From NCBI RefSeq assembly GCF_058153355.1, contig NZ_CM177019.1: 64,000 nucleotides of DNA; one strand, written 5' to 3'. Shown in pieces: positions 4,996-25,729 of the stretch. Under the pieces are notes generated by a model that was not told where the DNA came from, did no database searches, and saw nothing but the letters and a program-made list of their open reading frames with translations. Each line of letters begins with the position of its first letter. Within the stretch, counting starts at the first letter, position 1. A program made the position numbers and the translations under genes.

Positions 4996-5292
4996 CTACT
5001 TGTAAAACTGACGGAAATAGTCATCAACTGTCATAATGTTGAGGTCAAAATCAATATCCGGTAAGTCTAAGCATTTGAGCCTGATTAAATCTTCGATTTC
5101 ACTTGCGGCTAACGATGTCGTTATTGCGAAGGAATTTTCATTCAATTGTCGTGGTATCCCATATTCATCAGCCACGATAGAGGAGAAATTCATATCATAC
5201 ATCAATGATCTTAACCTTAAGAACACTGAGGAATAAGATGATGGATAATCAAAAGAAACAACATAAGTATTGAACTTGTTTTTACCTTCCAT
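4996..5292 (-). CDS. ghoS: Type V antitoxin GhoS (YjdK), 98 aa
   Basis: Translation MEGKNKFNTYVVSFDYPSSYSSVFLRLRSLMYDMNF...; located immediately upstream of ghoT on the same strand. Confidence 0.85.
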   Translation of the reverse strand: MEGKNKFNTYVVSFDYPSSYSSVFLRLRSLMYDMNFSSIVADEYGIPRQLNENSFAITTSLAASEIEDLIRLKCLDLPDIDFDLNIMTVDDYFRQFYK

Positions 5293-20537: not shown

Positions 20538-20578
20538 TTCCCCTTAATCCAGCAAACATAAAAGCCAACCTTAAGAAC

Positions 20579-20595
20579 TTAAGGTTGGCTTAATT
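20579..20595 (+). promoter_or_regulatory. PmrA (BasR) box-like direct repeat CTTAAG-GTTGG-CTTAAT upstream of eptA; overlaps a hairpin that may also terminate adiC
   Basis: Two hexamers with a 5-bp spacer seen in sequence, about 45 bp upstream of the eptA ATG; matches the published YTTAAK-N5-YTTAAK pattern. Confidence 0.55.
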
Positions 20596-22949: not shown

Positions 22950-22958
22950 TTGAATCTG

Positions 22959-24050
22959 ATGCGTTTTCTGCGCCGACCAATATCGCTGCGCCAACGGCTG
23001 ATATTGACCATCGGGGCCATTTTGTTGGTGTTTGAGCTGATCAGCGTCTTCTGGCTATGGCATGAAAGTACCGAGCAGATTCAGCTGTTTGAGCAGGCGC
23101 TACGCGACAATCGTAACAACGATCGCCACATCATGCGTGAGATCCGCGAGGCGGTCGCCAGCCTGATTGTCCCTGGCGTCTTTATGGTCAGCCTGACGCT
23201 ATTTATCTGCTATCAGGCGGTACGCCGCATCACCCGCCCGCTGGCGGAGCTGCAAAAAGAGCTGGAAGCGCGCACCGCCGACAACTTAACGCCCATTGCC
23301 ATTCACAGCGCCACCCTCGAAATCGAAGCGGTGGTTTCAGCGTTAAACGATCTGGTCAGTCGCCTGACCAACACGCTGGATAACGAAAGGTTGTTTACCG
23401 CTGACGTCGCGCACGAACTGCGAACGCCACTGGCGGGGGTGCGTTTGCATCTGGAACTGCTGGCGAAAACGCATCACATTGATGTAGCACCGTTAGTGGC
23501 ACGACTTGATCAGATGATGGAGAGTGTCTCCCAGCTACTGCAACTGGCGCGTGCCGGACAGTCATTTTCTTCCGGTAATTATCAACATGTAAAACTGCTG
23601 GAAGATGTCATTCTCCCCTCGTATGACGAACTCAGTACCATGCTCGACCAGCGCCAGCAAACCCTGCTATTGCCAGAGAGCGCCGCCGACATCACCGTTC
23701 AGGGTGATGCAACCCTGCTGCGGATGTTATTGCGAAACCTGGTAGAAAACGCCCATCGTTACAGCCCGCAAGGCAGCAACATTATGATTAAGCTGCAAGA
23801 CGATGGCGGAGCGGTCATGGCCGTTGAAGATGAAGGGCCGGGTATTGATGAGAGTAAATGTGGAGAGTTGAGTAAAGCGTTTGTACGAATGGACAGCCGT
23901 TATGGCGGGATTGGTCTGGGGTTAAGTATTGTCAGCCGCATTACACAGTTGCATCACGGGCAGTTTTTCCTGCAAAACCGGCAAGAGACTTCTGGCACAC
24001 GGGCCTGGATACGGCTGAAAAAAGATCAGTACGTGGCAAACCAGATATAA
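22959..24050 (+). CDS. basS: Sensor histidine kinase BasS (PmrB), 363 aa
   Basis: Recognised sequence M(R)FLRRPISLRQRLILTIGAILLVFELISVFW...; ATG at 22959 chosen over the in-frame TTG at 22950. Confidence 0.9.
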   Translation: MRFLRRPISLRQRLILTIGAILLVFELISVFWLWHESTEQIQLFEQALRDNRNNDRHIMREIREAVASLIVPGVFMVSLTLFICYQAVRRITRPLAELQKELEARTADNLTPIAIHSATLEIEAVVSALNDLVSRLTNTLDNERLFTADVAHELRTPLAGVRLHLELLAKTHHIDVAPLVARLDQMMESVSQLLQLARAGQSFSSGNYQHVKLLEDVILPSYDELSTMLDQRQQTLLLPESAADITVQGDATLLRMLLRNLVENAHRYSPQGSNIMIKLQDDGGAVMAVEDEGPGIDESKCGELSKAFVRMDSRYGGIGLGLSIVSRITQLHHGQFFLQNRQETSGTRAWIRLKKDQYVANQI

Positions 24051-24115
24051 AGAAAGCTGCTGACCACCAGCACGCTGAACACGGTAGTTAAACTTTCATA
24101 AACACGGTTTTTCAT
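24026..24115 (-). CDS. pmrR: Small membrane protein PmrR (29 aa, MKNRVYESLTTVFSVLVVSSFLYIWFATY), antisense to the last codons of basS
   Basis: Short minus-strand ORF translated by hand (below the ORF-track length cutoff); GGAGGAGAG Shine-Dalgarno upstream; PmrA box further upstream. Confidence 0.7.
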   Translation of the reverse strand: MKNRVYESLTTVFSVLVVSSFLYIWFATY

Positions 24116-24159
24116 TGCACTCTCCTCCGTTAACCTGGAGGAGAGTATGCGCGTCAGAG

Positions 24160-24176
24160 ATTAAGTGAACCTTAAG
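24160..24176 (-). promoter_or_regulatory. PmrA box-like repeat (minus strand CTTAAG-GTTCA-CTTAAT) upstream of pmrR
   Basis: Hexamer direct repeat with 5-bp spacer seen on the minus strand about 45 nt upstream of the pmrR start. Confidence 0.5.
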
Positions 24177-24226
24177 AGTTCAATTGGCCTAATAAGACAG
24201 CGTCACATCAGGCCATCCGTTTCAGC

Positions 24227-25729
24227 TTATTCATCAATTCGCGGATGCTGCTGCACCAGGCGGGTACGTTTCGCCTGCAAATCGGCAATCTCGTGGTCAA
24301 TATCATCGATTTTCTGCTCGATATTATCGTAATGCTCGACGAGAATTTCCTTCGCTTCCTGTATATCTGACGCCGCCGGTGTCGCACCTTTCAACGGACG
24401 ATTCGCCGTCTCTTTCATGGTTACGCCGGTGATTAAACCAACCACCGCCACTACCATCAGGTAATAGGCAGGCATCATCAGATTCTGCGAGCTTTCGACC
24501 AGCCAGGCCGCCAACGTTGGCGTCAGACCGGCAACCAGCACCGAAATATTAAATGCCGCCGCCAGCGCGCTGTATCGGATATGCGTCGGGAACATCGCTG
24601 GCAAGGTAGAAGCCATAACGCCCGTAAAGCAGTTAAGGATCACCGCCAGCATCAGTAACCCGGCAAAAATCAGGCCGATGACGTTACTGTTAATCAGAAT
24701 AAACGCCGGGATCGCCAACACAAACAGTGCAACACTACCAAGTAGCACAAACGGACGACGGCCAAAACGGTCACTCAGCAAGCCCATCACCGGCTGGACA
24801 AACAGCATACCGATCATAATGGCGATAATAATCAGCACCCCGTGGTCTTCGGAGTAATGCAGGTTATGCGACAAATAACTCGGCATATAGGTCAGCAACA
24901 TGTAGTAAGTCACGTTGGTGGCAATTACCAGACCAATACATGTCAACAGGCTGCGCCAGTATTTAGTGGCAATCTCTTTAAACGAGACTTTCGGGCCATC
25001 CTGCAAACCTTCGCGGTCGCCCTGTTCCAGTTTATCAACATGCTGCTGGAACGCCGGAGTTTCTTCCAGCGCATGGCGCAGGTAAAGCCCGATAATCCCT
25101 AACGGCAGAGCAATAAAGAACGGAATACGCCAGCCCCAGTCGAGGAAGTTCGCTTCGCCGACAATGGTCGAAATTAACACCACCACGCCCGCACCCAGCA
25201 CAAACCCGGCAATAGAACCGAAGTCCAGCCAGCTGCCCATAAAGCCACGTTTACGGTCAGGGGAGTATTCCGCAACAAATATCGACGCCCCGGTATATTC
25301 ACCGCCGACCGAGAAACCTTGTGCCATCTTACAGATCAACAGCAGAATCGGTGCCCAAATACCAATCGTGTCGTAGGACGGTATTAAGCCAATACAGAAC
25401 GTACTGATCGACATAATCACAATAGTGATAGCGAGGATCTTCTGGCGACCATATTTATCGCCCAACATACCAAAGAAGAGTCCGCCAAGCGGTCGAATCA
25501 GAAAGGGAACGGAGAAAGTGGCAAGTGCAGCAACCATCTGCACGCTGGGGTCAGCCCCCGGGAAAAAAACTTTACCTAATGCGTAAGCAACAAAACCATA
25601 AACACCAAAATCGAACCATTCCATTGCATTACCCAGTGATGCTGCGGTAATGGCTTTACGCAGTTTACCGTCATCAATAATAGTGACATCACGAAGGGTA
25701 ATCGGTTTTACTTTTTTCCTTTTCAGCAT
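24227..25729 (-). CDS. proP: Proline/glycine betaine:H+ symporter ProP (500 aa)
   Basis: Recognised MFS transporter with C-terminal coiled-coil (…DIDHEIADLQAKRTRLVQQHPRIDE); start at MLKRKKVKPITLRD. Confidence 0.92.
   Translation of the reverse strand: MLKRKKVKPITLRDVTIIDDGKLRKAITAASLGNAMEWFDFGVYGFVAYALGKVFFPGADPSVQMVAALATFSVPFLIRPLGGLFFGMLGDKYGRQKILAITIVIMSISTFCIGLIPSYDTIGIWAPILLLICKMAQGFSVGGEYTGASIFVAEYSPDRKRGFMGSWLDFGSIAGFVLGAGVVVLISTIVGEANFLDWGWRIPFFIALPLGIIGLYLRHALEETPAFQQHVDKLEQGDREGLQDGPKVSFKEIATKYWRSLLTCIGLVIATNVTYYMLLTYMPSYLSHNLHYSEDHGVLIIIAIMIGMLFVQPVMGLLSDRFGRRPFVLLGSVALFVLAIPAFILINSNVIGLIFAGLLMLAVILNCFTGVMASTLPAMFPTHIRYSALAAAFNISVLVAGLTPTLAAWLVESSQNLMMPAYYLMVVAVVGLITGVTMKETANRPLKGATPAASDIQEAKEILVEHYDNIEQKIDDIDHEIADLQAKRTRLVQQHPRIDE

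Follow-up and report, generated by a model that had tools for sequence, protein, structure and literature searches.

pmrR beside basS: a known PmrA-regulon gene whose ribosome-binding site lies in a conserved hairpin

The short minus-strand open reading frame (ORF) that converges on basS in the 64 kb window (the whole stretch of DNA that was analysed) is pmrR, which is known to belong to the PmrA/BasR regulon, has already been annotated and studied experimentally, and is not new. We give a probability of roughly 0.93 to the joint explanation in which the gene has this identity, regulon and published function, its transcription would start at the loop of a hairpin, the hairpin would silence RNA arriving from the upstream gene, and the overlap with basS would be a by-product. 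Because the gene is published and present in the standard annotation, nothing new is added on the gene itself; the use made of the conserved hairpin over the ribosome-binding site is possibly the only new detail. The features are listed in Table 1.

Table 1. Positions of features at the pmrR locus and of the second PmrA box in the window.
Feature	Position	Strand	Remarks
pmrR coding sequence	24026..24115	-	29 aa + stop; small single-helix membrane protein, LpxT activity modulator
basS (pmrB) sensor kinase gene	22950..24050	+	convergent with pmrR; ORF list, RefSeq
pmrR/basS coding overlap	24026..24050		convergent, 25 nt; ORF list
pmrR transcript primary 3' end, published	23926 (K-12 4332305)	-	100 nt beyond pmrR stop, 125 nt into basS antisense; PMC10687069 Supplementary Data 2 and 4
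PmrA (BasR) box CTTAAG-GTTCA-CTTAAT	24160..24176	-	exact CTTAAG-N5-CTTAAT; CTTAAGGTTCACTTAAT at 24176..24160
Second PmrA box CTTAAGGTTGGCTTAAT	20578..20594	+	47 nt 5' of eptA ATG (20641); 10 nt later GAGCAT
Predicted -10 hexamer CATACT	24144..24149	-	10 nt 3' of PmrA box; overlaps first bases of hairpin 5' arm
Predicted PmrA-dependent transcription start	24136..24137	-	inference, not a mapped site; first loop nucleotide, 7 nt after -10 hexamer
Conserved hairpin ACTCTCCTCC / 8-nt loop / GGAGGAGAGT	24119..24146	-	folding, covariation, Rfam STnc630 consensus
Shine-Dalgarno sequence GGAGGAGAG	24120..24128	-	4 nt 5' of ATG; most of hairpin 3' arm; G55 and G56 invariant in 40 species
Published RNA 3' end, pmrR-sense	24113..24115 (K-12 4332116-4332118)	-	5 nt past hairpin; Term-seq (Adams 2021), TRS (PMC10687069)
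proP	24227..25729	-	upstream, co-directional with pmrR; mRNA passes through pmrR promoter and hairpin
Rfam RF02052 'STnc630' match	24019..24184	-	182 bits vs gathering score 55; model positions 1-166 of 166; spans box, hairpin and whole pmrR ORF

Identity, conservation and published function of PmrR

The ORF list contained the reading frame proposed by the initial annotation, with the translation MKNRVYESLTTVFSVLVVSSFLYIWFATY. The identification as pmrR was confirmed by the NCBIfam equivalog NF033224 (PmrR), which matched the peptide with 74.2 bits against a cut-off of 30 (residues 1-29 on profile positions 1-29), and by RefSeq, which labels the same position pmrR, 'LpxT activity modulator PmrR'. 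A comparison with the annotated E. coli gene had been proposed at the outset; K-12 pmrR is b4703, and positions 24026-24176, which hold the ORF, the hairpin and the box, were found to have 100% the same letters as K-12, with coordinates mapping without indels. The region was found in 5,411 of 5,426 complete E. coli genomes. The peptide contains one hydrophobic helix, with a best 15-residue Kyte-Doolittle mean of 2.18. As compared with the known PmrR (Salmonella PmrR of Kato et al. 2012; E. coli b4703), this is the same gene and nothing in the window differs; the convergent position with pmrB/basS, the PmrA box and the NCBIfam equivalog match are common to both.

To describe conservation, we used 80 basS-anchored loci, a set in which Salmonella was not included. 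The ORF, box and hairpin were conserved together in 54 of these loci, each with a hydrophobic ORF of 28-30 aa that is convergent just past basS and a box, at no more than one mismatch, 41-46 nt 5' of the ATG. The orthologues are 28-30 aa long (one has 33 aa) and share an F-x3-W motif in which F21 and W25 are invariant. As judged by synteny, box, hairpin and motif, the family reaches Klebsiella, Enterobacter, Kluyvera and their relatives, where the NCBIfam model recognises only about half of the peptides; this extension beyond the reach of the model is a smaller point that may be useful.

LpxT is the enzyme that puts the second phosphate on lipid A position 1, and PmrR inhibits LpxT (Salmonella biochemistry cited in PMC8129183; Xu et al.; PMC11429745); according to the literature, this inhibition leaves position 1 open to phosphoethanolamine from EptA. 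Deletion of the pmrR promoter's PmrA box in PmrA-constitutive E. coli restored LpxT activity, abolished polymyxin B resistance and brought back deoxycholate resistance, and this phenotype was suppressed by lpxT deletion and rescued by ectopic pmrR (PMC8129183). PmrR has its role in polymyxin and bile-salt resistance because it sets whether LpxT or EptA modifies lipid A position 1, all of which is published. In E. coli B adapted to iron, its expression rose along with that of eptA, arn and basR (PMC13405929). These experiments, and those on translation given below, concern a sequence identical to that of the window. When K-12 carried a transcriptional reporter for pmrR in single copy, low Mg2+ did not induce it, though the RNA-seq and Ribo-RET signals rose. 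The low-Mg2+ growth defect of a pmrR deletion was independent of lpxT (PMC11429745), which suggests further PmrR targets, and one PmrAB-dependent phenotype of colistin resistance did not require PmrR. Like MgrB, MgtS and the connector PmrD of the PhoPQ/PmrAB network, PmrR is a short peptide, induced by stress, whose action on a larger membrane protein is post-translational modulation; its target is the lipid A enzyme LpxT and not a sensor kinase or transporter.

The same nucleotides, with the same central hairpin, are filed by Rfam as an enterobacterial sRNA gene candidate, STnc630. The full-length match at 182 bits and the first recovery of the candidate by Hfq co-immunoprecipitation (PMC2515195) would suit a non-coding, Hfq-associated sRNA in which the ORF is incidental. 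We regard this reading as scarcely tenable, as it is already contradicted by the published translation data, namely Ribo-RET start-site reads, a His-tagged protein found in the membrane fraction, and start-codon-dependent complementation that was lost in an ATG-to-TAA pmrR mutant (PMC11429745). The conservation of ORF length and motif across genera also speaks against it, and the coordinates first given for the STnc candidates were those of entire intergenic regions (PMC2515195). The family boundaries come from the intergenic region, and the stretch is really a promoter and a small protein-coding gene.

PmrA boxes and the predicted promoter

The pattern CTTAAK-N5-CTTAAT has exactly two matches in the window, against 0.01 expected, and both lie at PmrA-regulon genes. 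With this rarity and its position, the repeat upstream of pmrR could be accepted as the gene's own PmrA box, as had been claimed. The parallel box-like repeat 5' of eptA was also present as described, but its position is 20578-20594 and not 20579-20595. The reachable literature yielded no direct data on binding of BasR to the pmrR box in E. coli. As a separate observation, the eptA promoter in the same window has a parallel layout, in which the PmrA box is the 3' arm of a terminator-like hairpin after adiC.

Sequence and comparison point to an arrangement in which phospho-BasR would bind the CTTAAG-N5-CTTAAT box 10 nt 5' of the weak -10 hexamer CATACT, in a class II, PhoB-like layout. The hexamer corresponds to alignment columns 35-40 (nAyACT), where T6 is invariant and A2, A4 and C5 are each at least 90% conserved. 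A2 was unpaired in 17 of 37 sequences, and pairing does not account for its conservation. The spacer 5' of the hexamer is not conserved. From the box to the ATG there is no other conserved -10-like hexamer, and this one overlaps the 5' arm of the hairpin. Because of this overlap, the PmrA-driven mRNA is predicted to start at the loop, with its ribosome-binding site free. Transcription would thus begin at about 24136, and the Shine-Dalgarno sequence would be unpaired in a 5' untranslated region (UTR) of about 21 nt. Across species, the predicted start nucleotide is A in 25 of 40, and the predicted 5' UTR measures 19-24 nt with an open Shine-Dalgarno sequence.

The supplements of Cappable-seq, SMRT-Cappable-seq and Adams 2021 contained no entry for a pmrR start at K-12 4332080-4332109. 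A sigma-70 consensus scan of 23700-24500 found no promoter, as would be expected of an activator-dependent promoter without a -35 element. We also mapped the ends of the truncations that Xu et al. made downstream of pmrB onto the window. The construct ending at 24136 was susceptible and contains none of the predicted promoter; that ending at 24153 had an MIC of 4 and contains the -10 hexamer only; that ending at 24176 had an MIC of 16 and contains the -10 hexamer and the whole box. The nesting of hairpin and promoter offers a reinterpretation of the effect of the 'pmrB 3'-downstream region' on colistin resistance, in which this region may simply be the pmrR promoter.

The hairpin over the ribosome-binding site

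The inverted repeat is a perfect 10 bp stem (24119-24128 with 24137-24146) around the loop, and its 5' arm includes CTCTCCTCC. The ribosome-binding sequence GGAGGAGAG does lie inside it, as the initial annotation had noticed, and occupies the 3' arm (24128..24120 on the minus strand). As RNA, the hairpin has a folding energy of about -20 to -23 kcal/mol (z = -3.8), and none of 200 shuffled sequences folded as well. In an alignment of 40 species, 84% of the cells were paired, against 35-51% when the partners were slid, and the eight core pairs contained 28 G.U as compared with 4 A.C on the pmrR-sense strand. The count over all 12 stem pairs was 37 G.U to 30 A.C, so only the eight core pairs discriminate between the strands. 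By these comparisons the hairpin shows covariation and forms best in RNA of the pmrR sense, and it is the same helix as that in the Rfam STnc630 consensus structure.

The strand bias bears on whether the element could be a protein-binding DNA palindrome, or a plus-strand terminator for basS. The basS-sense RNA folds too, and the position, 69 nt after the basS stop, would be suitable. However, the 28 core-pair G.U on the pmrR-sense strand are A.C mismatches on the basS-sense strand, with only 4 of the reverse kind; a U tract is found on neither strand, and the published tables searched (PMC10687069) contain no basS-sense 3' end. Such a role is therefore very unlikely. On the pmrR-sense strand, the features of a canonical intrinsic (Rho-independent) terminator are divided, with a stem present and a U tract absent (the tail is UGCAAUGAAAAACC), and a consensus scan did not report the site. 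Because the U tract is lacking, the hairpin is not a canonical intrinsic terminator.

Folding gave a median probability over the 40 species of 0.03 that the Shine-Dalgarno sequence is unpaired when the 5' arm is included, and 0.48 when it is not. That the ribosome-binding site is occluded by the inverted repeat, as had been suggested, is thus supported in part: this holds for RNA containing the 5' arm, but would not hold for the predicted PmrA-driven transcript, which would start at the loop and lack the arm, as the -10 hexamer overlaps it. This distinction makes it doubtful that the hairpin acts within pmrR's own mRNA as a regulated translational switch that keeps the ribosome-binding site closed until a signal arrives. 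The stable stem with a fully covered Shine-Dalgarno sequence, the covariation on the pmrR-sense strand and the inclusion of the stem by Rfam in the STnc630 RNA are what such a switch would lead one to expect, but the sole conserved -10-like hexamer overlaps the 5' arm behind a spacer that is not conserved, and the activator site 10 nt from the hexamer puts the start at the loop. Moreover, the RNA from the predicted start folds open, and the Rfam boundaries are those of the intergenic region and not of a transcript.

Upstream RNA and the convergent basS gene

In every locus examined, the gene upstream of pmrR is co-directional and is either proP or uvrB. The RNA 3' end after the stem was recorded in uninduced K-12, where the authors of the TRS study explain it by transcription of the upstream gene terminating there, as shown by SEnd-seq (PMC10687069); exonuclease trimming could also be its source. 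The hairpin would form only in RNA from upstream, that is, in proP mRNA in Escherichia and in uvrB mRNA in most other genera, and in such RNA it would both mark the 3' end and hide the pmrR ribosome-binding site. Given the overlap of the -10 hexamer with the 5' arm and the published 3' end 5 nt past the stem, the hairpin probably serves to end the read-through RNA of the upstream gene and to silence it, and is not a regulator of pmrR's own mRNA. We rejected a proP-specific terminator as the whole story, since loci with uvrB in place of proP conserve the hairpin equally well.

This layout resembles that of certain mobile elements. The transposase genes of IS10 and IS50 are reportedly protected from outside transcription by 'fold-back inhibition' (Davis, Simons and Kleckner 1985). 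In the IS10/IS50 arrangement, the ribosome-binding site is paired, through an inverted repeat, with sequence upstream of it, transcription from the gene's own promoter begins within that repeat, and only read-through RNA is silenced; the layout at pmrR matches by prediction. At pmrR, a repeat that sequesters the Shine-Dalgarno sequence is present in upstream RNA, and upstream transcripts reach the element, while a start inside the repeat is predicted only, from the -10 hexamer that overlaps the arm. In contrast to IS10/IS50, pmrR is a chromosomal regulon gene and not a transposase gene, its start within the repeat is a prediction, and the mRNA of the upstream gene has its 3' end at the same hairpin.

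We tentatively propose, at slightly less than even odds, that the hairpin is a dual-purpose element within the PmrA-dependent promoter. It would serve as the 3'-terminal stem-loop of proP or uvrB mRNA and hide the pmrR ribosome-binding site on read-through RNA, while BasR-driven initiation at the loop would yield an open mRNA, so that PmrR synthesis would be strictly BasR-dependent; this would be an IS10-like fold-back in an ordinary chromosomal regulon gene. Such nesting of hairpin and promoter gives a testable account of how a tiny gene, packed behind a neighbour with strong expression, is kept silent as long as BasR is inactive.

On its other side, pmrR shares 25 nt with the end of basS at 24050, as the initial annotation stated. 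The description of the gene as fully antisense to the 3' end of basS was overstated, as 25 of its 90 nt lie in the basS coding sequence and the other 65 nt lie past the basS stop codon. In the 80 basS loci, the coding overlap in other genera ranged from -7 to +57 nt. This variation between genera ruled out the overlap as a selected feature; it would be a by-product of tight convergent packing and not a conserved feature.

The main effect of pmrR transcription might also be antisense or excludon regulation of basS, with convergent transcription or RNA pairing lowering basS mRNA and the peptide being secondary. The pmrR-sense transcript ends inside basS, 100 nt past the pmrR stop codon, the pair is on a published list of convergent excludons (PMC12288877), and the pmrB mRNA level changed about 315-fold with how long the downstream region was in plasmid constructs (Xu et al.). 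We nevertheless consider this reading unlikely, because ectopic pmrR complements the defect and requires its start codon, the peptide sequence is conserved with F21 and W25 invariant, and the coding overlap runs from none to 57 nt between genera. An antisense effect on basS may be an additional layer to the function of the PmrR protein and not a replacement for it.

Identity and published function of pmrR

The ORF list contained the pmrR ORF proposed in the initial annotation, together with its 25-nt overlap with the basS coding sequence, although the description "fully antisense" to the basS 3' end was too strong, as only 25 of its 90 nt are antisense to that coding sequence. The name proved correct. 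The peptide and the NCBIfam equivalog NF033224 (PmrR) matched along their whole length (74.2 bits vs. a cut-off of 30). Of 5,426 complete E. coli genomes, 5,411 matched 80% or more of a 601-nt query around pmrR; among the matches listed, RefSeq annotated "pmrR: LpxT activity modulator PmrR" with proP and pmrB on either side. In K-12 MG1655 the gene is b4703 (K-12 4332116-4332205). Upon alignment with K-12, no indels were present and 24026-24176 was identical. We also observed that the annotated basS start differs: in the closest genome (locus L001), RefSeq PGAP places a 366-aa PmrB at the TTG at 22950, and K-12 basS is annotated at 1,092 nt (363 aa), with 22959 as the alternative start.

Additionally, the Rfam model RF02052 (STnc630) matched 24184..24019 on the minus strand (182 bits vs. 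a gathering score of 55). Because the STnc470-640 coordinates are whole intergenic regions in the paper naming the STnc candidates (PMC2515195), this "sRNA" model contains the promoter and the ORF, and one locus goes by two names, STnc630 in Rfam and pmrR in the annotation. The terminator-like stem within the ORF is also a helix of the STnc630 consensus; we found no published RNA 3' end at this stem.

The gene is thus already in annotation, has models in both NCBIfam and Rfam, and has been the subject of experiments, in each case with E. coli sequence identical to the window. It was described as overlapping the pmrB (basS) 3' end, with a PmrA box in its promoter; in a PmrA-constitutive strain, deletion of the box alone abolished polymyxin B resistance and restored deoxycholate resistance, the polymyxin effect was undone by lpxT deletion, and ectopic pmrR brought resistance back (PMC8129183). 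In a preprint, Ribo-RET start-site reads at pmrR rose 5-fold in low Mg2+, PmrR-6xHis was present in the membrane fraction, and complementation of a pmrR deletion was abolished by changing ATG to TAA (PMC11429745). Adaptation of E. coli B to iron(III) induced pmrR along with eptA, arnA-C, ugd and basR (PMC13405929). These three reports document the transcript and translation on which the initial annotation had let the gene stand or fall; for BasR (PmrA) binding, the sequence offers a candidate box. In contrast, low Mg2+ did not induce a pmrR transcriptional reporter, the growth defect of a pmrR deletion was independent of lpxT (PMC11429745), and one PmrAB-dependent colistin resistance did not require PmrR.

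The primary pmrR 3' end lies at K-12 4332305 (PMC10687069), corresponding to 23926, so that the transcript passes the pmrR stop by 100 nt and enters basS by 125 nt, and a list of convergent excludons includes pmrR-basS (PMC12288877). An effect of pmrR transcription on basS at the RNA level is possible but unproven. It cannot substitute for the peptide function, which requires the start codon (PMC11429745).

Features of the pmrR locus and end-points of the published pmrB constructs
Feature	Position	Strand	Remark
basS ORF	22950 to 24050	+	convergent with pmrR
pmrR ORF	24026-24115	-	encodes MKNRVYESLTTVFSVLVVSSFLYIWFATY
Terminator-like stem, TGCTGGTGGTCAGCA then GCTTTCTTTA	24058-24072	-	within pmrR ORF
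Shine-Dalgarno, GGAGGAGAG	4 nt upstream of pmrR ATG	-	in hairpin 3' arm
Hairpin	24119-24128 / 24137-24146	-	perfect 10-bp inverted repeat, 8-nt loop
pmrR PmrA box, CTTAAGGTTCACTTAAT	24176..24160	-	
Imperfect palindrome, TGGCCTAATAAGAC / GTCACATCAGGCCA	24185-24215		just past proP stop
+86 construct	end 24136		predicted pmrR start; promoter not included
+103 construct	end 24153		just beyond -10 hexamer and hairpin; without PmrA box
+126 construct	end 24176		exact distal edge of PmrA box

Comparison across Enterobacterales

Among 80 loci fetched with BasS, not PmrR, as the anchor, 54 contained a hydrophobic ORF of 28-30 aa (33 aa in one) convergent with basS; a PmrA box with no more than one mismatch preceded the ATG of this ORF by 41-46 nt. 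Genera with this arrangement include Escherichia, Citrobacter, Klebsiella, Raoultella, Enterobacter, Kosakonia, Kluyvera, Phytobacter, Pseudocitrobacter, Trabulsiella, Yokenella and Pluralibacter; among the 80 loci, we did not find it in Pectobacterium, Rahnella, Rouxiella, Ewingella, Chimaeribacter or the Serratia sp. locus. The peptides keep their length, an invariant F21 and W25, and the motif [G/A/S]F-x3-W-x2-[T/S]-[Y/F]. Because the extent of overlap with basS varies between -7 and +57 nt, the overlap as such is not under selection.

The gene upstream of pmrR was co-directional in all loci examined. Escherichia and Citrobacter amalonaticus have proP at this position; other loci encode a protein of ~672 aa (start MSKPFKLHSAF, end RELFIAAS), putatively UvrB. 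This uvrB-like gene replaces proP directly upstream of the PmrR-like ORF, box and hairpin in loci L008-L060 (Klebsiella, Raoultella, Enterobacter, Kosakonia, Kluyvera and relatives), as in Klebsiella pneumoniae locus L022, where the ORF occupies 5050-5142 on the minus strand. Such ORFs may often be left unannotated, because the NCBIfam PmrR model recognises only 13 of 28 peptides at E <= 0.01.

The hairpin, the predicted promoter and the upstream mRNA

As initially annotated, the ribosome-binding sequence lies within an inverted repeat, which is perfect. Folded as RNA, the repeat reached roughly -20 to -23 kcal/mol (z ~ -3.8), a stability matched by 0 of 200 shuffles. In an alignment of 40 species from the PmrA box through the ATG, the 12-pair stem was 84% paired, compared with 35-51% after the 3' partners had been shifted by 1-3 columns. 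The stem scored 0.263 for covariation, a value reached by 0 of 500 shuffles, and the shifted versions scored no higher than 0.124. In particular, one central pair was CG in 13 sequences, AU in 12, GC in 5, GU in 4 and UG in 1. On the pmrR-sense strand, the 8 core pairs showed 28 G.U wobbles and only 4 A.C mismatches, which points to an RNA structure on this strand, not on the basS-sense strand.

A hexamer, nAyACT, was kept 10 nt past the box (T6 invariant; A2, A4 and C5 at least 90%), and the 10-nt spacer was not conserved. Pairing does not account for A2, which was unpaired in 17 of 37 sequences. The hexamer looks like a -10 element in the class II, PhoB-type placement, which is established for the OmpR/PhoB family, and at the eptA promoter the box lies at the same distance from GAGCAT. 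The hairpin 5' arm opens with the final three bases of the hexamer, and the predicted start, 7 nt past the hexamer, is the first loop nucleotide (A in 25 of 40 species). RNA from this start was nearly unstructured in E. coli (-2.4 kcal/mol, vs. -20 kcal/mol with the 5' arm), and an unpaired Shine-Dalgarno had a median probability of 0.48 in the 40 species, vs. 0.03 with the arm. The proposed occlusion of the ribosome-binding site thus holds for arm-containing RNA but not for RNA from the predicted start.

In uninduced K-12, pmrR-sense 3' ends were mapped at 4332116 by Term-seq (Adams 2021) and at 4332117/8 by TRS (PMC10687069), corresponding to 24113-24115, 5 nt past the stem; the TRS authors placed upstream-gene termination within the pmrR coding sequence per SEnd-seq (PMC10687069). 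The proP 3' UTR from 24226 to 24114 folded at -42.9 kcal/mol (z = -4.25), with the palindrome at the proP stop as its first helix and the Shine-Dalgarno hairpin as its terminal helix. This palindrome is similar to a degenerate REP element. A canonical intrinsic terminator was ruled out because the hairpin has no U tract; the 3' end may arise instead from exonuclease trimming back to the stem. Our best reading is that the hairpin would end or stabilise the upstream mRNA and keep pmrR untranslated on it, and that BasR-driven RNA, from the predicted start, would escape the hairpin. This scheme resembles the self-protection of IS10 and IS50, which shield themselves against outside transcription.

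Colistin constructs and PmrA boxes

In the work of Xu et al., pmrB(G361A) conferred colistin resistance only with downstream sequence present: the +86 bp construct was susceptible, and the MIC was 4 with +103 bp and 16 with +126 bp (PMC8004244). We counted these lengths past the pmrB stop and converted them to window coordinates. Because the end-points match the predicted start, the -10 element and the box edge, the requirement tracks the predicted pmrR promoter. The effect ascribed to the "pmrB 3'-downstream region" may be no more than pmrR expression, and Xu et al. themselves bring up pmrR as a speculation; the 315-fold difference in pmrB mRNA (PMC8004244) is left unexplained by this reading.

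The hexamer repeat noted upstream of pmrR was confirmed, and the strict pattern CTTAAK-N5-CTTAAT occurred exactly twice in the 64-kb window (0.01 expected by chance). The looser YTTAAK-N5-YTTAAK with one mismatch gave 5 matches in the window vs. 2.4 expected, which is not above chance. The eptA repeat was also present, at 20578-20594, one base off its initial coordinates. Since adiC precedes eptA and proP precedes pmrR, each with a hairpin, both PmrA-dependent promoters in the window are nested in a 3'-end hairpin of a co-directional upstream gene.

A perfect 13-14-bp hairpin (20562-20591, plus strand; -23.2 kcal/mol, z = -5.1) lies 25 nt past the adiC stop and has the eptA box as its 3' arm; it is followed by AATTTTGCTT, with the tail reaching 20601, and is terminator-like in appearance. 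At pmrR, the box spacer GTTCA pairs with TGAAC just upstream (TGAAC-TCTTAAG-GTTCA; 24166-24183, minus strand), so that the predicted fold of the proP 3' UTR includes a small hairpin there.
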